64,000 bases of DNA from assembly GCA_964602985.1 (NCBI GenBank), contig CAZRTJ010000005.1, forward strand, positions 73,198-137,197. The letters are read 5' to 3'. The stretch's first letter is position 1; the number at the start of each line of letters is the position of its first letter. The stretch is from an uncultured Bacteroidota bacterium (lineage in GTDB: Bacteria; CLD3; SB21). A program made the translations under genes and the position numbers. Below the pieces are notes generated by a model, which was not told the DNA's origin, did no database searches, and saw only the letters and a program-made list of their open reading frames with translations. Positions 16,845 to 54,412 of the stretch are shown here, in pieces.

Positions 16845-16977
16845 GAGGTCTCCGGGGTTGGAAAATTCGGTGCTAATGTACATCCTGCGTACGGAAATAC
16901 AACAAAAAATCCCTTTGCCCCGTGGAAGGGAATTTGTTACCGTCCCTTAGCGCGGAAATCATGGAACGAAAAACCTT

Positions 16978-37348: not shown

Positions 37349-37637
37349 GAAGGTTGGATCTTGTGATATGTCCGGCTTGTCGCAATCCCGTAAGACCAAT
37401 CGCGGAGACGATGCCCGCACCGGCAATGCCGGCGAGTAGGCCTGTCAGGGATCCCGCCAGAGACCCGGCCAACGCACCAGCCACCAGCCAGCACAAAGCG
37501 CCGAGCGTTAACATGTGAAGTGTCCGGCGTGAGGGCGAAACAACGAGCAGGACCACTCCCACCATGCAGTACAAAACGACACCCAGGACAACACAAGTCA
37601 CCCATACCCCATCCGCCGTCAGATACTTTCCAATCAC
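37341..37637 (-). CDS. Small two-TM glycine-zipper membrane protein
   Basis: GTG start overlapping the upstream stop. AGALAGSLAGSLTGLLAGIAGAGIVSAIGLTG is a GxxxG zipper. Weak; could be a frame artefact. Confidence 0.4.
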   Translation of the reverse strand: MIGKYLTADGVWVTCVVLGVVLYCMVGVVLLVVSPSRRTLHMLTLGALCWLVAGALAGSLAGSLTGLLAGIAGAGIVSAIGLTGLRQAGHITRSNLHG

Positions 37638-38623
37638 TTCGACACCGACAGTATTTTCCTGATCAGGTCCGCATCGTTGGGCAGCAGGCCCGCCTCAGTC
37701 AGCCGTGATACCAGGATCGCCCAATTTTTGTCTTTGGAAAAAATCTCCTTGAAAATCGGAAGAGATTCATCCAGACGCTTCATGTTCACCAACGAAACGG
37801 CGTACCAAAATTTCATTTCCAGATTGTCCGGAAACATCTTCTGTGCGGCCAGGTATTCTGCGAGCGCCTGTTCTTCGTTGTGATTTTCCACGGCCAGATC
37901 TCCGGCGTTCATGTGCTCGTAGGCTTCGTGTACTCGGAGGAGTCGGCGCAATTCCCGCAGCGGTTCGGCATGATCCTCAACGCGAAGTTCCATCACGCGA
38001 TCGGCCCACGGCCGGCCCGTCGAGCGACTCTTGACAATCAGGATCGCCGCGGATTGTTTTCCGCGGATATCTCCTCCTGCTCCCTCTGCGGCCTCCAAGG
38101 CTCGCATCAGGCGTTCGGCCAGCGGACCGTTTGCGGATTCGTACGCCTGCGACATCGCGCCCCAAATTCTGTCATTGAGCATCAGATTTGCTTGGACCGC
38201 GTACCCGCGTCCAACGATATGCCCGGCCGATGCAATGCAATTCCTCCCCGTGTGTACGGCCACATTCCCCTGTGCATCCACCATCGCGACCTGCCGAACG
38301 TCGCGCCCCGGATCCCCCGCCACCAGCGATTCCAGCGCCTGATTTGCGGTTTTGCCTGCTCGCATCAACTCCAATCCCAGCTTGCCGTACGAAGGATCGA
38401 CAAACGACTGAGTCGCGACGGCGCCCACTCCCGCTTCCGCCCAGGTGACCAGCGATCCCACAGAGAACCAGTGCGACTGGACGGCCACTCCCATTTCCCC
38501 GGTCACGGAGTCCCTGGCAACGATCGAGTATGTGTGAATGGGACGGAGGGAACTTTGAGCGAGCAAGTCGCAGGTGAGAGCGATCGTCAAACAGAACACA
38601 CGCATAGGAAGTCCTTTCGTCAT
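37634..38623 (-). CDS. Secreted DUF1028-family (Ntn-hydrolase-like) protein
   Basis: Signal peptide, then TYSIVARD..., the characteristic start of DUF1028 proteins. ATGA overlap with the upstream gene. Confidence 0.7.
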   Translation of the reverse strand: MTKGLPMRVFCLTIALTCDLLAQSSLRPIHTYSIVARDSVTGEMGVAVQSHWFSVGSLVTWAEAGVGAVATQSFVDPSYGKLGLELMRAGKTANQALESLVAGDPGRDVRQVAMVDAQGNVAVHTGRNCIASAGHIVGRGYAVQANLMLNDRIWGAMSQAYESANGPLAERLMRALEAAEGAGGDIRGKQSAAILIVKSRSTGRPWADRVMELRVEDHAEPLRELRRLLRVHEAYEHMNAGDLAVENHNEEQALAEYLAAQKMFPDNLEMKFWYAVSLVNMKRLDESLPIFKEIFSKDKNWAILVSRLTEAGLLPNDADLIRKILSVSK

Positions 38624-40560
38624 GGTCTAATCTCATACAGTCGAACGGTCGGACCGGCATACCTCATCGACCACGTCGACAGCGGTTGAAAATGCAGCGG
38701 AGCATCCGCCGTTTCCATCACAAGTGAAACGTCGTATTTTTTCAAAATAGCTGCTGCGCCGGCGCTGTCCTGCGTTGCAAAAAAATAATCTGCGTCTTCA
38801 CGGGCCTCCTTCAGCACACGAATTTGGTCGCCAGACAAGAGCGGCTCATAGTACGTGGATTGTTCGGCCACCAGCCGTTTTTCCGAATACACCCCGTTCA
38901 GAATGTTCGGCATGGTAGAGTCTGTGTGAAAAAGGAATCGTCCGGTGGACTCGTATGTGCGCGCCGCACCCAGGGCCTGCATATGGTCTGCGGAATACGT
39001 GTACGAGCCGCGTCTGACGCTCTTGCGCAGAACCGGCACCGCAAAGGTCAGCATCGACGATATCATGAGCAGCGCCCCACCCGCAAGCACCCATCTGCGA
39101 CCGCTGAGTTGCCGCCACCGCCGCACGGCATACGCCGACAGAATGGGCATGAGGCCCAAATAGAACCACATAGAATCGAACACCACAAGCTGATTAACAA
39201 TCAGTACAAACGCGCCCAGACCCGCCAAAATAGAGACCAGGCTGAGTCGATGCGGCGAATCGGAAAATAGCATACGCAGGATGAATCGCCAATCCGTCCG
39301 AAGGAACGCCAATGCGCGAAATCCGAGCAATCCTGCGTGCCACAGCGGAAATAGAATCACAAATTTCGTCATCTGCATGGCGTCGGTGATCACGCCGCGT
39401 TGGCGTAACTCCTGAATGGCCGCCGCAGACAACAACCCGAATTTCTGTGCAAATTCAGCCACGAAGAATCCGTTTGAGAATTGAACCTCATGATGTCCGT
39501 ACGATCCGGTCAGTTGAAGAATTCCAAAAAAAAGTGTGACGAGTCCGGCCAGGGTCATCGTGACTACCTGCCTTCTTCTCCACATGTCCACGCCCGCCAC
39601 CCACAACAATCCGGCAAATGCAGGAAGAAACGTAGTGATCTTTGCCTTCAACAAGACCAACCAGAGAATGAGCGTGACCGCAAAGACAAATGCGGAACGG
39701 TTCCTTTGCATCTGCCAGGTTGACAAGAACACGGCTGGAAGCAACGCGATGGAAGTAAGGTAAGAAGGATTGTTGTACTGCTGAAAAAACGTAATCACAG
39801 GATACCAAATCGACCAAGCCATCATCTTGTAGGAATTCATCCACACGAACAGACTTGAAACATCATACACCAGCCAGACAACCAGTACGGTCCAAAATGC
39901 CACCCTCATGTCTCTCCACAACGCCACACAAAACGCTGCTGAATTGACACCGAGAAGGAGCAGGAAGACAGGAGTGAAAAAGTACACGTACGCATACACC
40001 TTGTCCAGGGCAGGAAGCGAGTAACTGAACGCGCTGATAAAGTAGTTCGCGAAGAAGTGATACTCCGATCGATCATACTGCGTGACATCCATGGTCACAG
40101 GCCACGATTGCACGTTGATCTGGGTCACCAGGGCCAAATGATGCATGACCTCTTTCGCCACAATGTCCACCAGCCGCAGGTTGCCAGAGTCGTCATAACC
40201 ATTTTGTCCGATGTAAAAGCCGGCGATGAGGAAGAATGTCAGGGCAGCCAGGACGAATGGCAAACACTGCCGAAGAAATCTCCCCGCAAACACTTCCAAC
40301 AGTGCGCGTCGTTTGCGGAAAGCGCTCGCCGCAGAAATGACTGTCAGCAAACCCAACATCCCCACTACGATCCAGCGCGGACAATAGGTAATTCGAAGAA
40401 CAAAATAGACCACGACAATTGCGACTGTCGCAAGCGTCAGGCTGAGCGCCAGGTGTTCAGCGCGGCCTCCCTTCCATCGACCTCGCAGAAATGCGACGAT
40501 TCCAAGAAACCAAAGACCCAGCACCAGATAACAAACGCCTACCCAGAACCACACCGACAT
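38620..40560 (-). CDS. Polytopic membrane protein with C-terminal soluble domain; paralogue of 35324-37348; putative GT-C-type glycosyltransferase
   Basis: Start at MSVWFWVGV, overlapping the GT2 stop (TGATG). Conserved blocks are shared with its paralogue. The ORF-track N-terminus (46 aa, Ala/Gly/Asp-rich) is rejected. Confidence 0.6.
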   Translation of the reverse strand: MSVWFWVGVCYLVLGLWFLGIVAFLRGRWKGGRAEHLALSLTLATVAIVVVYFVLRITYCPRWIVVGMLGLLTVISAASAFRKRRALLEVFAGRFLRQCLPFVLAALTFFLIAGFYIGQNGYDDSGNLRLVDIVAKEVMHHLALVTQINVQSWPVTMDVTQYDRSEYHFFANYFISAFSYSLPALDKVYAYVYFFTPVFLLLLGVNSAAFCVALWRDMRVAFWTVLVVWLVYDVSSLFVWMNSYKMMAWSIWYPVITFFQQYNNPSYLTSIALLPAVFLSTWQMQRNRSAFVFAVTLILWLVLLKAKITTFLPAFAGLLWVAGVDMWRRRQVVTMTLAGLVTLFFGILQLTGSYGHHEVQFSNGFFVAEFAQKFGLLSAAAIQELRQRGVITDAMQMTKFVILFPLWHAGLLGFRALAFLRTDWRFILRMLFSDSPHRLSLVSILAGLGAFVLIVNQLVVFDSMWFYLGLMPILSAYAVRRWRQLSGRRWVLAGGALLMISSMLTFAVPVLRKSVRRGSYTYSADHMQALGAARTYESTGRFLFHTDSTMPNILNGVYSEKRLVAEQSTYYEPLLSGDQIRVLKEAREDADYFFATQDSAGAAAILKKYDVSLVMETADAPLHFQPLSTWSMRYAGPTVRLYEIRP

Positions 40561-41495
40561 CACCGGACTTCGTCGATGATGTACGGGGGTCGGCGACGCA
40601 CCTGATCCAGGGCACGCCACAGATACTCTCCAATCACGCCAAGCATCAGCATCTGAAGCCCCGACAAGAGCAGGATCAACACCATCAGCGGCGCCCACCC
40701 TTCAAAAGGCACGTTGCCAAACAACCGGTTGTACACGATCACCAAGGCATAGACAAATCCACACACGGCGGTGATCAATCCCGTCACCGACATAACCCGC
40801 AATGGCACATACGAATACCCCATCACACCGTCCAGCAGGTACTTCACCTTCATGCCAAACCTCCAGCGGGACTTGCCGTACGGTCGATCCAGCCGCTTAT
40901 ACGGAATCATCTTTCTCTTGAATCCGCTCCAAAGAATCTGGCCCTGAAAAAAGGGATTGGACTCGGGATTATCCAGCATCATGCGCACGACACGCTCTCC
41001 CAGAAGCATATAATCAAAACCGCCCGCGGGCATGTCCGGAAAGCTCAGCCTTCGCATCAGCATATAGAATACTCTTGATGTCCACCGCCGAAACACCGTC
41101 TCCTCCCGATCCGCGCGCGAACAAATCACCACGTCGTATCCCTCTTCGAAGTGACACTGCAGCATTTGCACAATCAACTCCGGCGGATCCTGCAAATCCG
41201 CCGAAATAGTCACGACGCATTTGCCCCTCGCATGCGCAAATCCGGCCATCAGCGCCGAGACCTGTCCGAAATTCCTCGTGAAGCGAATCACCGTGACCCA
41301 ATCCGGATGCTCGTTCTTAATCTCCAGAATCCTGGAATACGACTGATCCCCCGACCCGTCATCGATCAGTACAATCTGACAGGACCGCGAGGGCTGGAGG
41401 GAAATCACCTCACGGACGATCTTGTCGAAGGTTAACCGAATCGACTCTTCGTTATAATAGACGGGAATGATGATGGAGTAATCGACTTTTTCCAC
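40560..41495 (-). CDS. Family-2 glycosyltransferase of the polyprenyl-phosphate sugar transferase type (ArnC/GtrB/DPM1-like) with C-terminal TM helices
   Basis: YSIIIPVYNEE, DDGSGD, SADLQDPPE, and two C-terminal TM helices, which is the typical undecaprenyl-phosphate GT2 layout. Confidence 0.85.
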   Translation of the reverse strand: MEKVDYSIIIPVYYNEESIRLTFDKIVREVISLQPSRSCQIVLIDDGSGDQSYSRILEIKNEHPDWVTVIRFTRNFGQVSALMAGFAHARGKCVVTISADLQDPPELIVQMLQCHFEEGYDVVICSRADREETVFRRWTSRVFYMLMRRLSFPDMPAGGFDYMLLGERVVRMMLDNPESNPFFQGQILWSGFKRKMIPYKRLDRPYGKSRWRFGMKVKYLLDGVMGYSYVPLRVMSVTGLITAVCGFVYALVIVYNRLFGNVPFEGWAPLMVLILLLSGLQMLMLGVIGEYLWRALDQVRRRPPYIIDEVR

Positions 41496-41500
41496 GGCTC

Positions 41501-42637
41501 TCAGGCGTTCTTGCGATTCTTCATCGACCCGATCATTTCGCAGATCGCATCGACGTGAGGGAGCGAAAGATTGCCGTACATGGGAAGACAGAGAACTTGC
41601 TTCGCCACGCGCTCCGCCACCGGTAATCGACCGGGCGCGGCAGACGGCAATTCCCGATACGGTGGAAAGTGACTGATCAACGGATAAAAGTAGCGGCGTG
41701 AATACACGTTGTTCGTTTTGAGTCGATCGTACACGGCGTCCCGATCGGCTCCAAAGATCGCGGGATCGATGAGAATCGGAAAGTAGGAATGATTGTGCGA
41801 CACCTTGGGGAGATCGCCGAGGACGCGCACACCATCCAGTCCGGACAGATTCTCCCGGTACCGGGCCGCCACAGCTCGTCGACGATCCACTTCGCCGCGA
41901 AATCTCTCCATCTGCAAGAGACCCATGATCGCCTGAAATTCGTTCATCTTGGCATTAATGCCCACACTGACAACCGACGTCTCACCTGCGAATCCAAAGT
42001 TTTTCAGATAATCGATCCGTTGCTTGAGTTTTTCGTCCCCATGTACAATCGCCCCGCCCTCAAATGTCTGGAACACTTTCGTCGCATGGAAACTCAGAAT
42101 GCTCATATCGCCGTGGCGGAGTATGGACTTCCCGTCCACTGTCACCCCGAACGCGTGCGCGGCATCGTACAGGACTCGCAGTCCATAGATGTCGGCGATC
42201 CTTTGAATCTCTTCCACCCGGCACGGATTTCCGTACACATGCACCGGCAGGATTCCCGTCGTTTGATTGGTGATCAGGGATTCCACCTTCGTGGCGTCCA
42301 GGTTAAACGTCTGCTCTTCAATATCGCAGAATACCGGAGTGATCCCGTTCCAATGAAGGGAATGCGTGGTGGCCACGAAGCTGAACGGCGTGGTAATCAC
42401 CTCCCCCGTCATCCGCAACGCCTTCAGGCCAAGAAGGAGCGCCAACGTCCCATTGCTGAACAGATTCAGATACGGTACGCCGAGAAATTCAAGGAGTTTC
42501 TCCTCCAGTTGAACGTGATACGCGCCGTTGTTGGTGAGGATCTTGGACTTCCACAGTGTCTCCAGATGCGGAAGGACGGACTCCAACGGCGGAAGATCCG
42601 GTTCCGTGACATAAATCGGATGGTCGAACTTTGGCAT
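41501..42637 (-). CDS. DegT/DnrJ/EryC1/StrS-family PLP-dependent sugar aminotransferase
   Basis: Family hallmarks including the SFHATK lysine region. Start at MPKFDHPIYVTEP; the upstream 20 aa in the ORF track are unlikely to be translated. Confidence 0.8.
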   Translation of the reverse strand: MPKFDHPIYVTEPDLPPLESVLPHLETLWKSKILTNNGAYHVQLEEKLLEFLGVPYLNLFSNGTLALLLGLKALRMTGEVITTPFSFVATTHSLHWNGITPVFCDIEEQTFNLDATKVESLITNQTTGILPVHVYGNPCRVEEIQRIADIYGLRVLYDAAHAFGVTVDGKSILRHGDMSILSFHATKVFQTFEGGAIVHGDEKLKQRIDYLKNFGFAGETSVVSVGINAKMNEFQAIMGLLQMERFRGEVDRRRAVAARYRENLSGLDGVRVLGDLPKVSHNHSYFPILIDPAIFGADRDAVYDRLKTNNVYSRRYFYPLISHFPPYRELPSAAPGRLPVAERVAKQVLCLPMYGNLSLPHVDAICEMIGSMKNRKNA

Positions 42638-42814
42638 GCGTGATTGAACAGCGATTGAAACTTGCGTAGAGTAGGAAATTTTTCCGCCGAGTTCCAATGA
42701 AAAGTGCCGACCCGGTCTGCGACGAGATTGCTGGAAGCGGTGTACACGGTCTGACCTGAAGCGGCTGGTCTTCAGCGAACAGGGCCCACACCGCCAGCCT
42801 GAACGATGGAACTG

Positions 42815-45800
42815 CTAAAAATCCGCGCCAAACCAGAATTGAAAGAAGATTCCCTTCGACCAGCGCCGGTATTCACGCAACGTCTCCTCGTCCAGCCGGC
42901 CGCCAAAACCCAGGTCCCCGGTTTCCTTCAACTTCGTCGCGATAAATCGATCCCGATTGCCCGGCAGTCTAATGCCGAACACCTCTGCGTCGCGTGCGTC
43001 AAACATTTTTCCGAAATCAAATCGCAGGACAATAAATCCCAGCATGTTCACTCGAAACCCCGTCCCCACGCTCCCGATCAATCCGTCGAAATTGACATGA
43101 TCGACCACAACCGCTCCATCCGTAATCTGCGACCCCCACGCACTGCCGATATCCATGAACGCCGCGCCACGGATTCCGCGAAAGCCCAGTCCGCCAAACG
43201 GCAATTTCAAACTGATCACATCGACGAGTGGAAATCGAAGTTCCTGATTCACGACAAAGAACCGAGAGCCCGGCAGATTCCATCGTGGATATCCGCGCAG
43301 GTCCCAACTGCCGCCGAGAATGAAATTCTGCGGGTTCTTCCCCTCGTTCCACTGCACCATCGACCGCATCGCATACGTCGAACGGCTCGTGAGCCGAACA
43401 TACTTTCGATAATCCAGGATGACCGTGTAGTAATTCTGCTGCGATCGTTGAACGTCGCTCGTATATCCGCCGGAAACGGTGAAGCGATTCCCATCGATCG
43501 GCCCGGTGATCCCCCACAGCGCGTTGTCGTACGTGTAGCCGCCGAAGTTGCTCAGGATCAAGCCGTCCACGGGCAACACCTGACCGAACACGCTTTCCCG
43601 CCGATACTTGCTGAAATTCAACGACGACTCCAGCCGCTGGAAACGCGAGATCGGATAGACCACCTGGAGAAATCCGCCGAATCGATTTTGATCGACTTGT
43701 GCGATGTCGCCCACGTCGTCGATCTCGATAAAATCACCGCGGAAACGATAAAATCCGTACGCGAAATTGACCCGCTTCCCCAAATCCACTTTTGTCAGGA
43801 CAAGATTCCAATTGGTCAGCAGTTGAGACGTCGTTCGGGAGGTGTTAAAGACTAGGAGATAGTACTGCTGATCACCGAGCACGTCGGTCACTCCGACGAG
43901 ACCGCCGCCGCCATTCCCAAAAACCGGATCGACGTGAAAGGAACCCTGCACAAAGTCGAGGCCGTAGCGCTTGGAGTAGGGCCGTGCGGCTACACCTTCC
44001 GCCGCCACACGGGGCGTGGACCACAAGGTTTTCGCGGCAAGGGTCTCTACGTTCGCCGGTTGCGTGGCTTCGGCCTTGGCGCGGGCATTCGGCAACCGCC
44101 GAATTTGAAATCCGAATTTTTCAAACGTCGTCAGGATGATGTCCCCGTTGCGCGTCCACACCGGATCGAATCCAGCCGCCGTCAGTCGGACCAGTTCGCG
44201 CCCACGAAACGCGCTCAGCGAATCTCCCGCCTCGGCCGCATCGACAAAGTTCTTGTCGCCAGTGACAAACGGCAACACCCACAGGTCCGTCGGCTCCCCC
44301 GGTCGGTTCGACGTATACGCCAGCCATCGCCCGTCGCGCGACCAGGAGGGCGCGTCATCCCGCGTCCGACCCGCCGTCAAAGCAAACATCTTCATCGTGC
44401 CGACATCGCATAGATAGAGATTGTACGCACCCATCAGACCTTCTTCTGTACGATCCGACGAAAAGGCGATCCATCGACCGTCCGGACTCCACGCGGGCTC
44501 CTTGTCGTCGTACATATCGTTGGTTAGGCGGGTGAGACGCCCGTCTTCGGAATCGCCGGTCACTTCGAGAATATACAGGTCCGAATTGCCGCTCATCGCC
44601 AGCCCCGAGAACACAATCCTCTTGCAGTCCGGCGACCAGTTGGGCGAGGACAATCCGACCAGATCCTTATAGGAGTACCGATGCGTGACGGTCTTGCGGT
44701 TCACGTCGTACACATGCAGGACATCCTTCTCGCCGCTCTTGGTCACAAAGGCCAATTCACCCCTGGCATTGATGTCAATCTTGCTCTTGAAGAAATGAAA
44801 CGTTTCAAAATCTTCGGAGCGCTCGCCTTTGATGACGATTTCCTCCTTCTTCGTGTCCAGTCGATTGCGATAGATGTTCGTATATCCGTCGCGATTGGCA
44901 ACATAGAAGACCTCCTCGATGCCGTCGTGTTCCCAGTACGCCGGCTTCACGTGAAAACCTGCCGGACTGATTTTTTCCGTGATCGCCCCGGGTTCTTCGC
45001 GATTGGCCAGCGTCGGGAAGTATTTCTTTTTCAACCACTGCATCCAGCGTTCCGTCAATTCCTCATACGACACGCCGAGCGACAGGGCGACGACTTTTTC
45101 AAACGACTCGGTCTTCCACAGGTTGTCCAGGATCAACATAACTTTTTCGGAACCGAACGATTCGGAGACAAACTGGAGGAGATTCTCGCTCAACTTGTAC
45201 ATGTAGTACGTCCCCTGCACCGTCCAGAAATTCTGCACGGGCACGACGGTCCCATTGATCGTTGCATCGCGCATGACCATTTCCGCCTGGAAGTCCGGTT
45301 GTCCGCTCCAGTGTTCGGCGATTCCCTCGGTAAACCACAGGGGCGCGCCGGGATGGTTCAGCTTTCGATGCTCGGAGAGTATGCGCTCCATTTTGTACGT
45401 GGCAAATACGTGCACCAGTTCGTGCCGAAGCACGCGTCGAAACGCGTGAATCGATCCATCGCTTGGCAGTACGACGCGCCCTTTGAAGAACTCGAAGAAT
45501 CCGCCGACGCCCTCCGGAATCTCAAACGGCGACACATTCGTCTGCTGAAAATGCAGGTGCGAGCTGTAGACGATCATGGGCACCTTGCTCTTGAGCGAGT
45601 AGTTGAACAGATTTTGTAACTCCGCGTACTGCTCCTCGGCGAATCCCGCCGCCCGCTCCGCCAGTTCCTTCATTTCCGGATAATAATAGATCTCGAAATG
45701 CTCCGTCTCGAGCACCTGCCAGTGGAATCGCGTGTAATTGACCTTGTTCGTACCGAAGTAGTTGTCGTAATACTGCCCGTGCAACGCTGTGGTCAGCCAG

Positions 45801-45823
45801 ATCGCCCACATCCACACTCTCAT
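42815..45823 (-). CDS. Outer-membrane protein: N-terminal HExxH zinc-peptidase-like domain, TolB-like (PD40) beta-propeller repeats, C-terminal Omp85/D15-like beta-barrel
   Basis: Signal peptide; HELVHVF...EGIAEHW gluzincin-like motif; PD40 repeats (KEPAWSPDGRWIAFSSDR; DDAPSWSRDGRWLAYTSNR); C-terminal region with VLRFDFG and a terminal F. Confidence 0.75.
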   Translation of the reverse strand: MRVWMWAIWLTTALHGQYYDNYFGTNKVNYTRFHWQVLETEHFEIYYYPEMKELAERAAGFAEEQYAELQNLFNYSLKSKVPMIVYSSHLHFQQTNVSPFEIPEGVGGFFEFFKGRVVLPSDGSIHAFRRVLRHELVHVFATYKMERILSEHRKLNHPGAPLWFTEGIAEHWSGQPDFQAEMVMRDATINGTVVPVQNFWTVQGTYYMYKLSENLLQFVSESFGSEKVMLILDNLWKTESFEKVVALSLGVSYEELTERWMQWLKKKYFPTLANREEPGAITEKISPAGFHVKPAYWEHDGIEEVFYVANRDGYTNIYRNRLDTKKEEIVIKGERSEDFETFHFFKSKIDINARGELAFVTKSGEKDVLHVYDVNRKTVTHRYSYKDLVGLSSPNWSPDCKRIVFSGLAMSGNSDLYILEVTGDSEDGRLTRLTNDMYDDKEPAWSPDGRWIAFSSDRTEEGLMGAYNLYLCDVGTMKMFALTAGRTRDDAPSWSRDGRWLAYTSNRPGEPTDLWVLPFVTGDKNFVDAAEAGDSLSAFRGRELVRLTAAGFDPVWTRNGDIILTTFEKFGFQIRRLPNARAKAEATQPANVETLAAKTLWSTPRVAAEGVAARPYSKRYGLDFVQGSFHVDPVFGNGGGGLVGVTDVLGDQQYYLLVFNTSRTTSQLLTNWNLVLTKVDLGKRVNFAYGFYRFRGDFIEIDDVGDIAQVDQNRFGGFLQVVYPISRFQRLESSLNFSKYRRESVFGQVLPVDGLILSNFGGYTYDNALWGITGPIDGNRFTVSGGYTSDVQRSQQNYYTVILDYRKYVRLTSRSTYAMRSMVQWNEGKNPQNFILGGSWDLRGYPRWNLPGSRFFVVNQELRFPLVDVISLKLPFGGLGFRGIRGAAFMDIGSAWGSQITDGAVVVDHVNFDGLIGSVGTGFRVNMLGFIVLRFDFGKMFDARDAEVFGIRLPGNRDRFIATKLKETGDLGFGGRLDEETLREYRRWSKGIFFQFWFGADF

Positions 45824-46620
45824 GCCAGAATCCTCTTTTGCAGAAACGCGACGTGATTTCGAATGTAGCCGCTTGCGCGCGCCGTGCGTGTGCCGTACCA
45901 GCAGAAGTAGGAACCTTGGACGAATTCGATTTCAGCATCCGCGGCCCATGACTGACTTTGAATTTCGTCCCGATGCCGATCCTGAAACAGAAAAGGTTCA
46001 TCTGGAAGCAAGATCAGTTCCGGGCGAGACTCATGGAGAAACTCCGTGGTCAGGATCGGATAGCGATCCGCGAGATCTGCGCAGACATTTTTCATGCCGT
46101 GCGATTCCAGTACGTCATGAATGTACGTGTCGCGGTTGATCGACATCCACGGCTGCCGCCAGATCAGATACAACGTGCGGATCGACGCGCGAACCGGACG
46201 CAGGGCGCGAATCGCACGGACGAACGGAAACGCCCGTTCTTCCACGCCGAATATCTTTCCCATCGACTCCACGGTGTCCGCCGAATCGCTCAGCGTCCGC
46301 GGAAAGGTAACCCACGTGCGATAGCGGTCGTTGAGAAATTCCACATCTTCATTGCGATTTTCCTCCGTGTTCAGGATGACCAGATCGGGACAGAGTTCGG
46401 CGATCGCCGACAGGTCCGGATTTTTTGGTCCGCCGACTTTGGCTTTGTGAATGACTTGTTCTGCGGGTTCCGTGCAGAATTTCGTCACACCGACCACGCG
46501 ATCTCCGAGACCGAGTTCGAAAAGACTTTCTGTCAAACTGGGGATGAGGCACACCACACGCTGCGGCGGCGAAGTGAATCGGATTTTTCGTTGGAGAGCG
46601 TCTGATAGGACCGTGTCCAT
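45820..46620 (-). CDS. Periplasmic-binding-protein family 2 (BtuF/FhuD-like, cobalamin/iron-siderophore type) substrate-binding protein
   Basis: RVVCLIPSLTESLFELGLGDRVVGVT and PDLVIL motifs. Start ambiguous (46620 or 46674); no clear signal peptide. Confidence 0.65.
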   Translation of the reverse strand: MDTVLSDALQRKIRFTSPPQRVVCLIPSLTESLFELGLGDRVVGVTKFCTEPAEQVIHKAKVGGPKNPDLSAIAELCPDLVILNTEENRNEDVEFLNDRYRTWVTFPRTLSDSADTVESMGKIFGVEERAFPFVRAIRALRPVRASIRTLYLIWRQPWMSINRDTYIHDVLESHGMKNVCADLADRYPILTTEFLHESRPELILLPDEPFLFQDRHRDEIQSQSWAADAEIEFVQGSYFCWYGTRTARASGYIRNHVAFLQKRILA

Positions 46621-46721
46621 GCGGCTAAGATAGCACCGACCTTTCTCCCAAGTCAAGATACGGATGCAAATCAACCCGTTTAGGGTATGCGTGGGTCAGC
46701 CGGTAGCAACCCCTGCATGTG

Positions 46722-46743
46722 GGTGTGCCGCGCGGCTTTTTTT
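46722..46743 (+). terminator. Orphan intrinsic terminator (GCCGCGCGGC plus T7) with no upstream plus-strand gene
   Basis: A self-complementary GC decamer preceded by GTGGGTGT and followed by 7 T, ~75 nt upstream of the M64 peptidase ATG. Confidence 0.45.
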
Positions 46744-46819
46744 ATTGTCTCCTGAGACAGCGACCTTGCAAATCTTCCTGTGTGAAACTAAGTTGCGATA
46801 CCATCTGAAAGGGGTTCCT

Positions 46820-48103
46820 ATGATTCGGTTTGCAATACTCGTATGGGCCGGCACCGCTCTGTGGGCGCAAGATGCGCCGAGATTTGATGACCATTTCATC
46901 AACGGCGTGCTGAGATTTGATTTCTATCACGGATTTGACAAGTCGTCGCACACGATCGTACCGTATCGCTGGCGCGAGGAGCCATTCTACGCAGGAAGCA
47001 AGACGGTTCTTGTCCCGCCGATGGATATGGGAAATTTCCGATACGACGTCATGGATTCCGCCAGCGGCCAGTTGATCTATTCCGAAGGCTATTCGGACCT
47101 GTTTGAGGAGTGGAAGAGTACACGGGAGGCGCTGGAGGGCGGCCGGCAAGTATTTCTGGAATCCGTCCGATTCCCCTATCCGAGGGCAACGGTCGTCCTC
47201 AAACTATTCGCGCGGGATCGGAGCGGCGCGTACTTCGAAATGTATTCCGAAACCCTCAATCCCCGATCCCTTCGCATCGACCGGTCCCGGCCTTCGCGCG
47301 CGTTTGAAACGGGAGATATTTCCCTGAGCGGTCTGCCGGAAGACAAGATCGATGTGCTGTTTCTGGCGGAGGGATACACCTCCGGACAAACCGCGAAATT
47401 CAAAGCGGACGCGAGGAAGCTCGCCGATTATCTGGTGAGCAAGGAGCCGTTTCGGACGTACCGGGACCGATTCAATTTCCGCTATGTCGCTGCCGTATCG
47501 GAAGAAGGAGGAACGGACGAACCCGACCGAGGCATTTTCAAACGAACCATCCTCAGCAGTTCGTTCAACACATTCAACATCGAACGGTACATCACCACGA
47601 TGGATCACCACACCCTGCGCGAACTCGCCTCGGCGGTACCGTACGATCACGTGGTGGTCCTGACAAATCACGAGCGATACGGCGGCGCGGGTTTTTATAA
47701 CTTCTATTCGATCTTCTGTTCCGACATGCCCGAACTCGGCGACGTATTCGTTCACGAGTTCGGTCACCAGTTCGCGGGACTGGCCGACGAGTACGACGGA
47801 GATTTCACGCAGGGCGAACCGTTTTATAATTTGAAAATCGAGCCGTGGGAAGCGAACATCACGACGTCGCGCAAGCGTCAAAACATCAAGTGGAACTCCG
47901 TGATCTCCAAGGACACGCCCATCCCGACACCAAACGACGCGAAGTACGCAAACGTCGTCGGGTGTTTCGAAGGCGGCGGATATTCCACGAAAGGAATTTT
48001 CCGTTCGCAACTGTATTGCCTGATGCGCGGCTGGGAGGTTCGCGAGTTTTGCCATGCCTGCCGCGAACAGTGCGTGAAGATGCTGAAGCTGTATACGAGG
48101 TAG
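46820..48103 (+). CDS. M64-family (IgA-peptidase-like) zinc metallopeptidase, secreted
   Basis: Signal peptide MIRFAILVWAGTALWAQ and HEFGHQFAGLADEY. Start at the internal Met with an AAAGGGG RBS. Confidence 0.8.
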   Translation: MIRFAILVWAGTALWAQDAPRFDDHFINGVLRFDFYHGFDKSSHTIVPYRWREEPFYAGSKTVLVPPMDMGNFRYDVMDSASGQLIYSEGYSDLFEEWKSTREALEGGRQVFLESVRFPYPRATVVLKLFARDRSGAYFEMYSETLNPRSLRIDRSRPSRAFETGDISLSGLPEDKIDVLFLAEGYTSGQTAKFKADARKLADYLVSKEPFRTYRDRFNFRYVAAVSEEGGTDEPDRGIFKRTILSSSFNTFNIERYITTMDHHTLRELASAVPYDHVVVLTNHERYGGAGFYNFYSIFCSDMPELGDVFVHEFGHQFAGLADEYDGDFTQGEPFYNLKIEPWEANITTSRKRQNIKWNSVISKDTPIPTPNDAKYANVVGCFEGGGYSTKGIFRSQLYCLMRGWEVREFCHACREQCVKMLKLYTR

Positions 48104-49027: not shown

Positions 49028-49270
49028 ATGCCGGTCAAAAGTTATCTTCTTCAACCCGTCCGTGGAATGGACGATGAACTCAAATCAGCGCTAAGCCCCT
49101 TGGGCGGGTGCGAACTGATCGAGACCACCCGTCCAGACCTTTACGTTTTGCTCACCGACACTTCCTCCCGCGAAGAAGAAAAAAAACTGGAAACTGCGTT
49201 GGAGACGCTCCCGGGAGTCGCGTGTCTGAGCCTGGTGTCCGCCTACGATGACAGGGAGATTGAAATATGA
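49028..49270 (+). CDS. napD: NapD-like chaperone for periplasmic nitrate reductase
   Basis: 80-aa protein directly upstream of, and overlapping by 4 nt, napA. NapD-like pattern (hydrophobic core, acidic tail, conserved V..L.L). Confidence 0.65.
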   Translation: MPVKSYLLQPVRGMDDELKSALSPLGGCELIETTRPDLYVLLTDTSSREEEKKLETALETLPGVACLSLVSAYDDREIEI

Positions 49271-51570
49271 ATCGTCGGGAATTGATCAAAAAGATGGCCA
49301 CGCTGGCCGCCATGACCGCCGCCGCGTCCGTGATTCCGGGCGTCACCTTCGCCCGCAACGTGGACGAATGGACGGAAGATCCCATCGAGTGGAAGAAATC
49401 TCCGTGCCGATTTTGCGGCGTCGGATGCGGCATCCTCATCGGTCTGTCCAATGGCAAAGCCGTCGCCGTCAAAGGCGATCCCAACAGTCCGGTGAATAAA
49501 GGTCTCTGCTGTGTGAAGGGCTATCACTCCGTCATGGCGTTGTACGGCAAGGATCGCCTGACCAAACCCTACATCCGCAAGAACGGACGGCTCGTGCCGG
49601 CCACCATGAAGGAAGCGCTCGACCTGATCGCGGAAAAAATGAAGGAGACGATTTCCAAACACGGCAAGGATTCCGTCGCCGTCTACGGCAGTGGACAGTG
49701 GACGATCCCCGACGGCTATGTCGCGTCAAAGTTCTTCAAAGCCGGCATCGGAACCAACAACGTGGAAGGCAACGCGCGACTGTGCATGGCCAGCGCCGTC
49801 ACGGGCTTCCTCACATCCTTCGGACAGGACGAGCCGATGGGTTGCTATGACGACATCGATCACGCCGACGTATTTGTCCTCTGGGGCAATAACATGGCGG
49901 AAATGCATCCGGTGCTCTTCTCCCGACTGCTGGATCAACGCATGCGGCGCGGCGCCAAAATCATCGACTTTGCCACCCGGACGACCCGCACGAGTATGGC
50001 CGCCGACAAATCGATTCTCTTTCGCCCGCAAACCGATCTTGCCGTCGCGAACGCCATCGCATACGAATGCATCCATAACGGCTGGATCAACGAGCGGTTC
50101 ATCCGTCAGCACACGGTATTCAAGAAAGGCAAGACGAACATCGGATACGGCCTCGAAGATCATTCTAATTTTCAGGACGAACCCAAAGACGCGACGTTCG
50201 ACGAGTACAAGAAATTTCTCGAAGATTACACGCCCGAAAAAGTGGAAAAGATCTCCGGCGTTTCCGCCAACGACATTCGCTACATTGCCCAGATGTACGG
50301 CGACCCGAATAAGAAAATCATGAGCCTGTGGTGCATGGGAATGAACCAGCACACGCGCGGTACGTGGATCAATAACCTCGTGTACAATATTCATCTGCTT
50401 CTCGGAAAAATTTCCACTCCCGGCAACAGTCCCTTCTCTCTGACGGGACAGCCCAGCGCGTGCGGGACCGTGCGCGAAGTCGGCACGCTGACCAATCGCC
50501 TCCCCCACGGTTTTGTGACCAATGAGAAGGATCGCAAACTGGCTTCGGAAATATGGAACGTCCCCGTCGAGAAAATTCCCGACAAGCCGACGTATCACAC
50601 GATGGAGATGTTCCGGGCGCTCGACCGGGGCGACATTCGTTTCATTTGGATCCAGGTGACCAATCCCATGGTCACGTTGCCCAAGCTCACGCGGTATCGC
50701 GAGGGCGCGTTGAAGGAAGATCGGTTCGTGGTCGTCTCCGATGTGTATCCTACGCCGACGACGGATGTGGCCGACGTGATTCTGCCGTCCGCCATGTGGA
50801 TCGAACGCGAAGGCATGTTTGGCAACTCCGAACGGCGCACCCAGCACTTCGAGAAAATGCTCACGCCGCCGGGTGAGGCGATGAGCGACACTTGGCAGTT
50901 GATCGAGGTCGCCCGGCGAATGGGATATGAAAAACTCTTCCCGTGGAAGGAAGAAAACCACATTGAAGAAATTTGGAAAGAATACACACGTTTCCACCAC
51001 GGGCCGGATCATGAAATGGCGACCTATGAAAATCTCAAAGCCAATCCCGGAGTGATGTGGCCTTGTCCGGACGGCAAAGAAACCAAGTGGCGCTACCACG
51101 CCAAAACGGATCCCGCCGCCAAAGGCGACTCGTTCGACTTCTACGGCAAGCCCGATGGCAAAGCGTGGATATGGATCCGCCCGTACGAACCGGTGCCGGA
51201 AGCGCCCGACGACGAATACCCGTTCTGGCTCAATACGGGACGTGTGCTGGAACATTGGCATACGGGCTCTCTGACACGCCGCGTGTCGGTATTGCACAAA
51301 GCAGTCCCGTCATCGTACGTCGAACTGCATCCGGAGGATGCACGCGAACTCGGAATCAAGAACGGCGATCGGGTGCGTCTGATCTCGCGACGCGGAAAGA
51401 TCGTGATGTCCGCCTCCATCAATGAGCGCGGCGTGCCGCCACGCGGACAGGTCTTTGTACCATTCTTTGACGAAGGCTATCTGATCAATGAACTGACGCT
51501 GGACGCATTCTGCCCGATCTCGGGACAGCCGGATTACAAAAAATGCGCGGTGAGAGTCGAACGCGCATGA
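49267..51570 (+). CDS. napA: Periplasmic nitrate reductase catalytic subunit NapA (monomeric short type)
   Basis: Tat signal NRRELIKK; CRFCGVGCG [4Fe-4S] motif; NARLCMASAVTGF Mo-ligand cysteine region; 767 aa. Confidence 0.92.
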   Translation: MNRRELIKKMATLAAMTAAASVIPGVTFARNVDEWTEDPIEWKKSPCRFCGVGCGILIGLSNGKAVAVKGDPNSPVNKGLCCVKGYHSVMALYGKDRLTKPYIRKNGRLVPATMKEALDLIAEKMKETISKHGKDSVAVYGSGQWTIPDGYVASKFFKAGIGTNNVEGNARLCMASAVTGFLTSFGQDEPMGCYDDIDHADVFVLWGNNMAEMHPVLFSRLLDQRMRRGAKIIDFATRTTRTSMAADKSILFRPQTDLAVANAIAYECIHNGWINERFIRQHTVFKKGKTNIGYGLEDHSNFQDEPKDATFDEYKKFLEDYTPEKVEKISGVSANDIRYIAQMYGDPNKKIMSLWCMGMNQHTRGTWINNLVYNIHLLLGKISTPGNSPFSLTGQPSACGTVREVGTLTNRLPHGFVTNEKDRKLASEIWNVPVEKIPDKPTYHTMEMFRALDRGDIRFIWIQVTNPMVTLPKLTRYREGALKEDRFVVVSDVYPTPTTDVADVILPSAMWIEREGMFGNSERRTQHFEKMLTPPGEAMSDTWQLIEVARRMGYEKLFPWKEENHIEEIWKEYTRFHHGPDHEMATYENLKANPGVMWPCPDGKETKWRYHAKTDPAAKGDSFDFYGKPDGKAWIWIRPYEPVPEAPDDEYPFWLNTGRVLEHWHTGSLTRRVSVLHKAVPSSYVELHPEDARELGIKNGDRVRLISRRGKIVMSASINERGVPPRGQVFVPFFDEGYLINELTLDAFCPISGQPDYKKCAVRVERA

Positions 51571-52247
51571 AGGACGTACTCAAACATCGCAAGGTTTTCA
51601 TCTTTCTCGTCATCCTGCTGATGGCTTCGGTGATCTACGTGTTCGGCGAAAGTCTGTCCGGCGAAGACATCACGGCTGTCGGGTCCGAAACGAGATGGGT
51701 GTCGGGTCCCACGTTGCCGCGCGAAGCAGGGGTATTCCGACGCGCCGCCGATGCACTGATTTACCTCGGCCTGATTAACGAAAGCGGCAAGCGAACGATG
51801 CGGACGTACTACGAACGCCGCGCCTACGACGGCGCGCCGCCGATGATCCCGCATGTGGTGGACGACGAACGCGCCTTCGGCGGCAAAGTCTGCCTGACCT
51901 GTCATGAAAACGGCGGCTACGTGCCCAAATACCAGGAGTATGCTCCTGTCGTTCCGCATCCGGAATTGATCAACTGCCGCCAATGTCACGTTCCCGCCAA
52001 AACGAATTCGCTCTTCCGCGCGTCCGACTTCAAACCGGCCGGCGTTCCCGCACTCAAACAGCGCGCGTTGTCGACAAGTCCGCTCCTCATTCCGCATCAA
52101 CTTCACATGCGCGAAAATTGTCTCGCCTGTCATGCCGGACCGGGTGCGCCCCAGGAAATTCGCACCACGCATCCCGAGCGTTCGAATTGTCGGCAATGCC
52201 ACATGGTTCAGCAACCCATGGAAACTTTTTCGAGGCCGGTTCAATAA
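51567..52247 (+). CDS. napB: Membrane-anchored tetrahaem cytochrome made of two tandem NapB-like dihaem modules
   Basis: N-terminal TM helix, then two repeats of the NapB signature: APPMIPH...CLTCH...CRQCHVP and SPLLIPH...CLACH...CRQCHMV. ATGA overlap with the napA stop. Confidence 0.75.
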   Translation: MKDVLKHRKVFIFLVILLMASVIYVFGESLSGEDITAVGSETRWVSGPTLPREAGVFRRAADALIYLGLINESGKRTMRTYYERRAYDGAPPMIPHVVDDERAFGGKVCLTCHENGGYVPKYQEYAPVVPHPELINCRQCHVPAKTNSLFRASDFKPAGVPALKQRALSTSPLLIPHQLHMRENCLACHAGPGAPQEIRTTHPERSNCRQCHMVQQPMETFSRPVQ

Positions 52248-52248
52248 T

Positions 52249-52860
52249 ATGCCACGACCCGACCGTATCCGATGGCTATTCGCCGCGATGTTGTGCGTCT
52301 GGATCAGCGCGTGTTCCAAGCATGAAACGCATGGCCTGGCCGCGATGCTGGACGAGGCGCCGCCGCCCGATTCCGCAACCTCCGCCGCCCAGCCCTCCCT
52401 GGGAGAATGGCCCGCACTGACGGCAGTTCAGGCCGATCTGGAAACGTACGTGGTCTCGCGCACTCCGCGCCTAACGAAATATCCGTGTACGAACTGCCAC
52501 ACGAAGCCGCTGAAGGAGATGAAATCCGTGGAAGTCCGCAAAGCGCATTGGGACATTACTTTACAGCACGCCGCCGAAAACATCATGACCTGTCTCACCT
52601 GTCATACGGAAACGAACCTGGACACCCTGCACAACCTGACGAATCAAACGCTGTCGTTTAACACCAGCCACGAGGTGTGTGGGCAATGTCATTTCACGCA
52701 GCTGCGTGATTGGAAAGGCGGCGCGCATGGCAAACGCGCCGGCGGCTGGGTTCTACCGCGCGTGCTGACGTTGTGCGTGGAGTGCCACAACCCGCATCGT
52801 CCGGCCTTCGACAGCCGGTGGCCCGCCATCCGCAGTAATCTGATGGAGAGGCTCCGATGA
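52249..52860 (+). CDS. Tetrahaem c-type cytochrome lipoprotein (NapM/c3-like)
   Basis: Lipobox WISAC; CTNCH, CLTCH, CGQCH, CVECH. It begins 2 nt after the previous stop. Confidence 0.75.
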   Translation: MPRPDRIRWLFAAMLCVWISACSKHETHGLAAMLDEAPPPDSATSAAQPSLGEWPALTAVQADLETYVVSRTPRLTKYPCTNCHTKPLKEMKSVEVRKAHWDITLQHAAENIMTCLTCHTETNLDTLHNLTNQTLSFNTSHEVCGQCHFTQLRDWKGGAHGKRAGGWVLPRVLTLCVECHNPHRPAFDSRWPAIRSNLMERLR

Positions 52861-53960
52861 AACGCCCTGCGGACAATTCCGGACTGCAATCCATGCTTGC
52901 GGAAAATGCACTCGGCTGGTTTCTCCAGAGAGACGTCGAAGATCGCTATCTGCAGGATTCGTGGCAGCAGGTTCGATTTTGGAATCAGACGCACGATACG
53001 ACCCCCCGTGCTCCCGCCGTCACCGTCGCCGAACTGTCCATGCAGGAAGGCATGTCTCGTCGCGACGCGATGAAAGCGATGACGGGCACTCTGCTCGCGG
53101 GCATGGCGCTGTTTCAGACGGCGTGCAATCCGTTCGCCGATCCGCTCGAACGCGAAAAGGCCAGCCTCGCGTGGGACGAATATTTCCAAAAGAACTTTCG
53201 CAAAATGTCCGAAGGCGAAAGAGAAGAAACCGTCCGACGGCTGGAACGCCAATACGAATTGCAATCCGGTCAACGTGTGCGGATTTCCCGAAGAGAGGCC
53301 ATTCCGGGCGTCCTGTTCGGATATGCGTTTAACATCTCCAAGTGCCGCGGATATCTCGAGTGCATTCGCGGCTGTCTGAAAGAAAACAATCAGGACCGTA
53401 AATCCGGGATGCAGTACATCTCCATTCACGAACACAAAAGAGGTCAAATCAATTTTTCCAACGCACCCGACGACTGGTTCCACGAGGTTCCCTCCGAAGA
53501 TCACTTCTACATAGGCACGCAGTGTTTTCATTGTGAAAATCCGCCTTGTACGGATGTGTGCCCCGTCCAGGCCACGTGGAAAGAACGAGACGGCATTGTC
53601 GTCGTGGACTACAACTGGTGCATTGGATGTCGCTATTGCGAAGCGGCGTGTCCGTACGACGCCCGGCGATTCAACTGGGCCGACCCGGTCGTCCCAGACT
53701 CGGAACTCAACCGCGAGCAGCATTATCTCGGCAATCGCCTGCGCAAGAAAGGCGTGATGGAAAAATGCACATTCTGCATTCAGCGCACGCGCGCGGGCAA
53801 GAATCCGGCCTGCGTCGAAGCCTGTCCGACCGGCGCGAGGATTTTCGGCAATCTGCTCGACCCGGATTCCGAAATTCGATGGGTCCTGAAGAATAAAAAA
53901 GTCTTCCGTCTCAAAGAAGAACTGGGCACCGAGCCCAAGTTTTGGTACTTCATGGATTGA
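52857..53960 (+). CDS. Tat-exported four-cluster [4Fe-4S] ferredoxin subunit (NrfC/PsrB/DmsB family)
   Basis: SRRDAMKAMTGTLLAG Tat motif at residues ~66-80, and four Cys clusters including CxxCxxCxxxCP. ATGA-coupled to the upstream gene. The alternative start at 53040 gives a normal-length Tat peptide. Confidence 0.8.
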   Translation: MKRPADNSGLQSMLAENALGWFLQRDVEDRYLQDSWQQVRFWNQTHDTTPRAPAVTVAELSMQEGMSRRDAMKAMTGTLLAGMALFQTACNPFADPLEREKASLAWDEYFQKNFRKMSEGEREETVRRLERQYELQSGQRVRISRREAIPGVLFGYAFNISKCRGYLECIRGCLKENNQDRKSGMQYISIHEHKRGQINFSNAPDDWFHEVPSEDHFYIGTQCFHCENPPCTDVCPVQATWKERDGIVVVDYNWCIGCRYCEAACPYDARRFNWADPVVPDSELNREQHYLGNRLRKKGVMEKCTFCIQRTRAGKNPACVEACPTGARIFGNLLDPDSEIRWVLKNKKVFRLKEELGTEPKFWYFMD

Positions 53961-54056
53961 CATGTTGCGTTACAAAAACACATACAAGATTTCGTACAGT
54001 GATGAGAACGCAGTCAACCCCCGAAGTTTTCAGGTTTGATCTTAAAAAGCGTGGAA

Positions 54057-54070
54057 TTGATTTGAGTCAA
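54057..54070 (+). promoter_or_regulatory. FNR/CRP-family-like box TTGAT-N4-GTCAA in the intergenic gap inside the nap locus
   Basis: TTGATTTGAGTCAA matches TTGAT-N4-(A/G)TCAA in 9 of 10 positions, ~340 nt upstream of the NrfD-like gene. Confidence 0.25.
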
Positions 54071-54105
54071 TGACAGTTGGTCGAATGAAAGAGATTTCCT
54101 TTCTG

Positions 54106-54132
54106 TTCTTTCTTTTGACGCAAAAGAAAGAA
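54106..54132 (+). other. Perfect 12-bp AT-rich palindrome (TTCTTTCTTTTG-acg-CAAAAGAAAGAA)
   Basis: Seen directly. No U-tract follows, so it is not a canonical terminator. It sits in a 450-nt lower-GC gap. Confidence 0.4.
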
Positions 54133-54412
54133 CCAAAGAAAACAGCGGCTGTGGAAAAAACGCCGGAATCGGAGTTCGCTTATGGAGGCGGAAAACAAGT
54201 TCCTAATGTGGACGTGACGAGTTGCTTTCATACCTGTTCCACGTTTTCCGCATCATGGAGCGCGAACTCCGGTTCTGTTTCGGCGTTTTTTCCAAGGCCG
54301 CCAAGTAGGCTGCGTCCTGCGAGAAAGTTTGATAACAAATGGACGGCGGTTGCCGGGATGAGATCCAAGGCAGACATTCGAAACAGGAACAACGTAGGGA
54401 GAACGGAACTTC

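Follow-up and report, generated by a model that had tools for sequence, protein, structure and literature searches.

A WD40-Omp85 protein with a predicted zinc-metallopeptidase head in an uncultured Bacteroidota bacterium

Introduction

The question raised by the locus described here was whether one long gene, which appeared to join a zinc-peptidase-like head, a TolB-like propeller and an Omp85-like barrel, encodes an outer membrane protein of a new kind, and what the function of such a protein might be. The gene is located on the minus strand of a 64,000-nucleotide stretch of DNA from an uncultured Bacteroidota bacterium (positions 73,198–137,197 of contig CAZRTJ010000005.1, assembly GCA_964602985.1), the whole of which is referred to below as the window. 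A preliminary description, made from the letters of this DNA only, had recognized the three modules but could not assign their combination to a named family. The Omp85 superfamily is central to outer membrane biogenesis, and mechanisms are known only for its BamA, TamA, TpsB and PlpD types.

Gene Integrity and Domain Architecture

The list of open reading frames (ORFs) had a gene exactly at the place given in the preliminary description, 42815..45823 on the minus strand, starting with ATG and encoding 1002 amino acids followed by a stop codon. All three modules named in that description were found by Pfam above the gathering cut-offs, which makes the architecture far beyond chance; matches of the protein to the TolB, Omp85 and BamA models of NCBIfam were each below threshold, and a sequence search of the PDB returned TolB and other propellers only. 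A full-length AlphaFold2 model was built on 34 homologs, giving a mean predicted local distance difference test value (pLDDT) of 75.2 and a predicted template modelling score (pTM) of 0.66, and the Foldseek results agreed with the modular reading of this model. Conservation was evaluated in two sets, one with 34 close homologs (45–76% identity) and the other with 40 divergent members (25–40% identity). The gene and its parts are, all on the minus strand:

42815..45823, complete ORF with a peptidase-MA head, a PD40 propeller and an Omp85 barrel, according to the ORF list, Pfam and full-length homologs
45776..45823, predicted signal peptide MRVWMWAIWLTTALHG, residues 1–16, a short hydrophobic N-terminus with an inferred cleavage site
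44969..45775, predicted gluzincin (clan MA) catalytic head, residues 17–285
45476..45514, conserved EGVGGFFEFFKGR block, residues 104–116, seen from conservation and modelled as strands just ahead of the HExxH helix
45410..45424, HELVH zinc-binding/catalytic motif (H134, E135, H138), from translation and conservation
45314..45331, TEGIAE, residues 165–170, with E166 as the probable third zinc ligand and an invariant E170
44093..44968, TolB-like PD40 beta-propeller with about six blades, residues 286–577
43988..44092, variable linker, residues 578–612 (18% identity in the close set, 10% in the divergent set)
42818..43987, Omp85/BamA-type beta-barrel with about 16 strands and a final Phe, residues 613–1002
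43289..43315, loop-6 motif GGSWDLRGY, residues 837–845, carrying the Omp85 (V/I)RG(Y/F) signature
43145..43159, FMDIG, residues 889–893, corresponding to FxDxG of Omp85 and located two strands past loop 6
42854..42997, clade-specific insertion of ~48 residues, residues 943–990, between the last two strands in the predicted extracellular loop 8

A trivial explanation for such a gene would be an assembly artefact, i.e., a chimera, a mis-assembly or a frameshift joining separate genes, and one database representative, P0133 (1321 aa), truly is a frameshift fusion. For the window gene this was refuted: the ORF could be aligned over its whole length with complete homologs of many independent assemblies (43–99% identity), the same protein was obtained by an independent gene caller on a 99%-identical contig of 127 kb from another data set, and every module was in one frame with conserved junctions, leaving the artefact with a practically negligible probability.

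The predicted signal peptide was weakly conserved (14% identity) yet found in all homologs, and Q17 (window 45773–45775), the first residue past it, was invariant in the 34 close homologs. According to the so-called Q-rule, the substrates of signal peptidase I in Bacteroidetes are cyclised to pyroglutamate, and the invariant Q17 fits this rule. Scanning of the region 41300..47000 for promoters and terminators yielded no more candidates than shuffled sequence did, with the reservation that the sigma-70 consensus may not suit this lineage.

Assignment to the WD40-Omp85 Subfamily

The combination of modules proved to have a name already. The survey of the Omp85/TpsB superfamily by Heinz and Lithgow (2014; PMC4104836) distinguished ten bacterial subfamilies, one of them being termed "WD40-Omp85" (WD40-like) and listed in its Table S2 with the profiles PF01103 and PF07676. 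Phyre2 applied to this group gave TolB and aminopeptidase, and Table S3, which has no POTRA match for it, includes a "best aminopeptidase hit" column for the WD40-Omp85 group only, with the entries 1z5h (tricorn factor F3), 4kxd, 4fgm, 3qnf and 4ar1 at a confidence of 98.7–99.4; the N-terminal regions thus matched peptidases of the M1, tricorn-F3 and collagenase types (PMC4104836). The carriers belong to FCB-group lineages, among them Chloroherpeton, Rhodothermus, Salinibacter and Caldithrix, and the text of the survey covers the propeller only, with neither catalytic-residue nor gene-neighbourhood analysis (PMC4104836). The wording used for WD40-Omp85 in a paper from 2024 is "divergent WD40 and peptidase domains".

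The window protein shares with this subfamily a PF01103 barrel placed after PF07676 repeats, a propeller with TolB as the best match, the absence of POTRA and a gluzincin-like N-terminus. On the basis of its domain content matched to the published tables it is a metagenomic member of the named WD40-Omp85 subfamily, so that the architecture, left unassigned in the preliminary description, does have a place in a named group. The architecture is identical and the protein in the window is an ordinary ortholog; what differs is its origin from an uncultured Bacteroidota/Ignavibacteria-like lineage and the ~48-residue insertion in the last loop.

The same domain order was present in thousands of full-length homologs elsewhere. 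A word-indexed search yielded 4318 proteins at E ≤ 1e-5, the best 120 of which were nearly all about 935–1030 aa long and had the same Pfam set; the labels carried by the homologs were "BamA/TamA family outer membrane protein", "PD40 domain-containing protein", "peptidase MA family metallohydrolase" and "Tol biopolymer transport system component". When the head only was used as a profile against 1.84 billion cluster representatives (clusters at 50% identity), 6541 proteins matched at E ≤ 1e-3; at the stricter limit of E ≤ 1e-30 the number of cluster representatives was 936. The head was N-terminal in every one of the best 150 matches, whose lengths were mostly 900–1125 aa; the shorter proteins are apparently fragments cut off by contig ends. 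The divergent members contained PD40 in 39, Peptidase_MA_2 in 38 (best E 1.2e-19) and Omp85 in 31 of the 40 sequences at E ≤ 1e-3. In a species-representative genome set 73 loci were found, the closest being 76% identical and almost all belonging to metagenome-assembled genomes (MAGs) labelled Bacteroidota, Ignavibacteria/Ignavibacteriota or Chlorobi-like.

The Predicted Zinc-Peptidase Head

In the AlphaFold2 model the head is a mixed alpha/beta domain occupying residues of about 33–285, with helices at 125–152 and 162–172 that carry the HELVH and TEGIAE regions. The preliminary description had pointed out HELVH followed approximately 25 residues later by EGIAEHW; both are present, with an actual spacing from H138 to E166 of 27 residues. 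The glutamate of the HExxH motif (E135) and both its histidines (H134, H138), as well as E166 and E170, were invariant in the 34 close homologs, and in the divergent set H134, E135, H138, E166, G167, E170, G108 and R116 were found in 40/40 and E111 in 39/40 sequences. By the gluzincin HExxH...E arrangement, E166 is the probable third zinc ligand.

Two modelled strands, 106–112 and 115–120, directly precede the active-site helix, with a low local pLDDT, and the block P-E-G-V-G-G-F-F-E-F-x-K-G-R-V-V-x-P was invariant across the 34 close homologs. This position, the strand ahead of the active-site helix, is where the substrate backbone is bound in thermolysin-like enzymes and where the GxMEN motif is found in M1 enzymes. 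The GGF(F/T)E block resembles GxMEN, is probably a substrate-binding edge strand and may anchor the substrate N-terminus, placed in a part of the model where local confidence is low.

Comparison of the head profile with the PDB by sequence produced a chance match only (E 2.6) and was uninformative, so that a fold comparison was needed. By fold, the head had the thermolysin-like catalytic arrangement, its closest counterparts being M30 and M9, at a sequence identity to M30-, M9- and M1-type gluzincins of 9–14% only. As modelled, the HExxH region thus belongs to a genuine gluzincin catalytic fold, not to a non-catalytic one; zinc binding and peptidase activity are putative, and the HExxH...E site is intact. 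The head was also the best-conserved module, with 57% identity to the query in the close set compared to 47–48% for the propeller and barrel, and 36% compared to 27% in the divergent set. An intact invariant active site within the most conserved module strongly favours a working enzyme over a vestigial one.

The Propeller and the Linker

The middle module scored 74.4 bits for PD40 in Pfam. Three clear P-x-W-S-x-D-G signatures of the PD40 type start at residues 394, 443 and 492 and a degenerate one at 554, in agreement with the at least two repeats predicted initially, and the propeller was modelled at 290–577 with pLDDT mostly of 85–95. Its best match was TolB, and the family profile matched by sequence the propellers of the tricorn protease (E 1.4e-14). 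The target scored 105.2 bits against the TolB equivalog model TIGR02800 (NCBIfam cut-off 343.15), and no tol/pal genes were seen among the neighbours examined. No Pfam POTRA family matched the protein at E ≤ 1, and the 35-residue linker was modelled with a single short helix, without the beta-alpha-alpha-beta-beta unit of a POTRA; its sequence showed no evident motif for cleavage or release.

The Omp85 Barrel

The C-terminal module matched Omp85 (PF01103) at residues 677–945 with 43.1 bits (cut-off 24) and was modelled as some 16 long strands (residues 613–1000), a 16-stranded fold like that of BamA, TamA or Sam50. By sequence, the family profile matched the Fusobacterium BamA 9ccg (E 1.3e-19) and other BamA proteins (E 1.9e-15), and phmmer with residues 560–1002 gave no match in the PDB. 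The NCBIfam scores were 30.5 bits for TIGR03303 BamA (cut-off 297.15) and 40.8 for Omp85_fam (cut-off 200).

The loop-6 (V/I)RG(Y/F) signature and the FxDxG motif are known from FhaC and BamA. In the window protein GGSWDLRGY sits in a long modelled loop, 826–853, between barrel strands; G837, G838, S839, D841 and R843 were invariant in the close homologs, and among the divergent members G837 and R843 were present in 40/40 and G838 and G844 in 39/40. FMDIG lies on the modelled strand 879–894, with F889, D891 and G893 retained in 37, 38 and 34 of the 40 divergent members, respectively. The C-terminus reads ...FWFGADF, and the last residue was F or Y in 36/40 divergent homologs. Of the Omp85 features proposed earlier, the barrel and the terminal aromatic residue stood and VLRFDFG (residues 932–938) did not as a diagnostic motif: it is a conserved motif on the penultimate strand (V932, L933, R934 and G938 invariant in the close homologs), and the diagnostic ones are LRGY (842–845) and FMDIG (889–893). 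The loop-8 insertion was complete only in the eight closest aligned homologs (54–76% identity; shorter in P0019) and absent from other members of the close set, with a gap fraction of 0.60 in the close and 0.83 in the divergent set.

Gene Neighbourhood

The neighbours were compared de novo over all loci, the downstream counts being taken from the 60 loci in which the sequence continued for 1.3 kb or more past the gene. Directly adjacent to the target gene in the window are, both on the minus strand:

45820..46674, Peripla_BP_2 gene (PF01497, 61 bits) upstream, its stop overlapping the target ATG by 4 bp (ATGA)
38620-42697, genes for a DegT-type aminotransferase, a GT2 glycosyltransferase and a polytopic membrane protein of 692 aa, forming a cassette directly downstream

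The Peripla_BP_2 gene was found directly upstream of the target homolog only in five close loci (L001, L004, L038, L060 and L062), and co-transcription of the two genes is probable in this closest clade only. Its product, of the BtuF/FhuD type, is 284 aa as called from TTG and 225 aa by another caller, and has no obvious signal peptide. The window's downstream genes for the DegT aminotransferase, GT2, the 692-aa membrane protein and DUF1028 adjoined none of the 73 homologous loci and were rejected as functional partners, not being conserved beside the homologs. The 692-aa protein had no Pfam match, and the DegT/GT2/692-aa gene order presumably resembles that of the Arn-like lipid-linked aminosugar transfer (ArnB/ArnC/ArnT).

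A different partner emerged from the relatives. In 47/60 loci the gene directly downstream, on the same strand and usually with a gap of <300 bp, encoded a BamB-like lipoprotein of ~386 aa, whose best families were PQQ_2 "BamB" (165 bits) and TIGR03300 BamB (174 bits, with the NCBIfam cut-off at 285); in about 20 loci it was followed by a PEGA-domain gene (~265 aa). The linkage to the BamB-like gene ranged over L003–L072 (e.g., L015:6640-7800 and L012:12789-13913), and neither this nor the PEGA linkage was mentioned in the literature searched. In one large clade the target homolog and the BamB-like gene apparently form one operon. An SIS/PGI-like isomerase was located upstream in this clade (Pfam-confirmed in one locus, L077), and PtsI, polyprenyl synthetase, lumazine synthase and FabG/FabD were other recurrent neighbours, as judged by eye. 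Such housekeeping-like synteny together with the BamB-like gene is more in keeping with a core function of the envelope than with an accessory one.

The fused representative P0133 was considered as a Rosetta-stone fusion with the BamB-like neighbour and rejected, the frameshift being within the barrel: the barrel sequence degenerates past "...RRWFMGG" and runs into the lipoprotein signal peptide of the neighbour. This entry (L077:4001-7966, MAG GCA_964449305.1), which results from faulty assembly or annotation or else is a pseudogene, could mislead domain-architecture surveys.

Other Genes of the Window

The window was unusually rich in peptidase-type genes besides the target, which suggests a proteolytic lifestyle:

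15072-16883, minus strand, M2 (angiotensin-converting-enzyme-like, 360 bits)
27737-30682, minus strand, M1-domain protein of 981 aa
30729-32801, minus strand, M28
37634-38623, minus strand, DUF1028 (Ntn-type) with TPR
46664-48103, plus strand, M64

The M64 gene (IgA-peptidase family) is divergent beside the operon of the target in the window, and M64 was a divergent neighbour in three close loci. Another conspicuous gene is a giant ORF of 2319 aa (7467-14426, minus strand) with Laminin_G_3, right-handed beta-helix/NosD and a C-terminal FlgD_ig-like domain, whose product is probably secreted or surface-located. At 49267-55699 on the plus strand, a NapA-type periplasmic nitrate reductase molybdopterin enzyme is followed by 4Fe-4S (52857-53960) and NrfD-like (54413-55699) subunits; in the 99%-identical contig the NapA-type gene adjoins genes for NapB-like and multihaem cytochromes. 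This locus belongs to anaerobic respiration and is unrelated to the target.

Discussion

The identity of the protein as a WD40(PD40)/peptidase-Omp85 member with the described architecture is held here with high confidence. In contrast to BamA, TamA and Sam50, it has no POTRA domains, the presumed periplasmic part consisting of a propeller and a peptidase; TolB, of about 430 aa, is soluble in the periplasm and works with Pal and TolA, whereas the propeller of the window protein is covalently joined to a barrel and a protease. Within the clan MA(E) gluzincins (M30 lugdulysin/hyicolysin, M9 collagenase, M1) the head differs in being assigned by Pfam to the generic Peptidase_MA_2, and, unlike the M1 aminopeptidases, it lacks a PF01433 match, the N-terminal beta domain and the C-terminal ERAP1-like domain, being a bare catalytic head of ~270 residues. 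With PlpD of the type Vd it has in common an enzyme domain at the N-terminus joined to an Omp85-type barrel at the C-terminus, but PlpD has POTRA and an exported patatin lipase passenger, neither of which was detected by Pfam in the target, and the latter carries a large folded propeller. Filing it under M1 aminopeptidases, TolB, BamA or PlpD was therefore rejected, since each fails in a defining feature. The S9 prolyl oligopeptidase/DPP-IV family and the tricorn protease have a similar propeller (by Foldseek, profile matches and Tricorn_N/Tricorn_2nd Pfam matches) and offer the concept of a propeller governing the access to a peptidase; those, however, are soluble serine peptidases with the catalytic domain C-terminal to the propeller, and the target is membrane-anchored with an N-terminal metallopeptidase. 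A likeness in function only is provided by BepA, a periplasmic HExxH zinc protease acting at an Omp85 barrel and equipped with a non-catalytic protein-interaction domain; BepA has the M48 family fold and TPR instead of a propeller and is a separate soluble protein docking on BamA, and no homology is claimed.

In all Omp85 proteins of known structure, including BamA, TamA, FhaC and Sam50, the N-terminus of strand 1 is periplasmic, so the head and the propeller should hang beneath the outer membrane on its periplasmic side. In the arrangement proposed here, a 16-stranded BamA-type barrel would anchor a six-bladed TolB-like propeller and an N-terminal clan-MA zinc metallopeptidase in the outer membrane; the propeller might bind the substrates or filter them, in the way known from S9 peptidases and the tricorn protease, and the head might degrade or trim proteins or peptides of the envelope on the inner side of the outer membrane, comparable to the logic of BepA on BAM. 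In most relatives this job would probably be shared with the BamB-like lipoprotein and the PEGA-domain protein encoded downstream. That the protein is an active protease of the periplasm appears more likely than not from the conserved active site and the barrel topology, and a role in envelope quality control can be suggested only tentatively; for the whole favoured reading, an outer-membrane-anchored, periplasm-facing active metallopeptidase involved in envelope protein turnover or quality control, belief and doubt are about evenly balanced.

Several observations weigh against this favoured reading. The Peptidase_MA_2 (PF13485) match of the target was marginal (33.2 bits at a cut-off of 32.4), and the confidence in the modelled barrel was moderate, with pLDDT of about 45–80. 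The presumed periplasmic orientation is drawn from Omp85 topology only. A search of the literature for functional studies of proteins with Omp85, PD40/TolB-like and peptidase modules returned only the 2014 survey and papers citing it. As to the BamB-like neighbour, its score is under the cut-off of the BamB family model, and the BamB-like/PEGA linkage was absent from the window and its two closest relatives (L001 and L002), which have lost it, and from three divergent members, where the neighbours were DsbD, NAD_binding_1, and CcsA with MlaD/MlaE. Given these absences, the linkage is real but clade-specific and cannot define the function of the family.

Among the alternatives, a self-exported surface protease similar to type Vd, in which the barrel or BAM would translocate the head and the propeller for the degradation of external proteins or peptides as nutrients, was raised for the metallo-Omp85 group by Heinz and Lithgow (PMC4104836). 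The order of an enzyme followed by an Omp85 barrel is that of PlpD with its patatin passenger, the nearest head folds, M30 and M9, are those of secreted endopeptidases, and the window abounds in genes for exported or unassigned peptidases (M2, M1, M28, M64, DUF1028), of which M64 is the divergent neighbour in three close loci. However, the POTRA held by PlpD-type proteins between the passenger and the barrel is absent, a closed propeller of 290 residues with periplasmic TolB as its best match would have to cross the membrane unfolded, and the variable linker has no evident cleavage or release motif; moreover, the housekeeping type of synteny and the presence of a BamB-like partner in most of the relatives better suit a role inside the envelope, which makes self-export improbable. 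The same authors put forward a specialized insertase or translocase of the Omp85 kind that contains its own processing protease (PMC4104836). Its barrel would actively handle particular substrates in the manner of BamA, TamA or TpsB, the head would mature or clip these substrates, and the propeller would provide docking in place of POTRA and BamB. The barrel retains the loop-6 RGY (R843 in 40/40), FxDxG and the terminal aromatic residue and is closest to true BamA proteins, and a BamB-like lipoprotein gene adjoins in 47/60 loci. On the other hand, the BamA and Omp85 model scores far under the cut-offs (30.5 vs. 297 and 40.8 vs. 200 bits) and the lack of POTRA speak against an insertase, the conservation of loop 6 and FxDxG may reflect barrel stability only, and no candidate substrate gene was linked consistently across the clades, so a low probability was assigned to it.

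Least plausible of the functional alternatives is a non-catalytic scaffold, with the head as a binding module that has lost its enzymatic role and the protein linking the outer membrane to the periplasm in the manner of TolB/Pal. It would agree with the TolB-like propeller, with the JGI label "Tol biopolymer transport system component" on homologs and with the marginal Peptidase_MA_2 score, but H134, E135, H138, E166, E170, G108, E111 and R116 showed hardly any variation or none down to 25% identity, whereas pseudo-enzymes normally lose such residues; the head was the most conserved module, and the TolB family model was far below its cut-off (105 vs. 343 bits), which renders a scaffold very unlikely.

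Extending the favoured metallopeptidase reading, the protein might be the core of a dedicated outer membrane quality-control machine in Ignavibacteria/Bacteroidota-like and related lineages, composed of a propeller-gated protease barrel, the BamB-like lipoprotein and the PEGA-domain protein, a proposal that is speculative and rather unlikely as it stands. If true, this machine would fill the role of the separate factors BepA, DegP and BamB of Proteobacteria, and the barrel would hand over stalled beta-barrel substrates to the protease, thus being a mechanistic participant and not a mere anchor. As far as the searchable literature shows, the PD40/peptidase-Omp85 type, large and strongly conserved, has never been studied. 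The family-wide conservation of the catalytic residues and the BamB-like/PEGA linkage in one large clade take it beyond a catalogue entry and yield a testable hypothesis, namely that these bacteria may possess a protease built into an Omp85 barrel for the turnover of envelope proteins.

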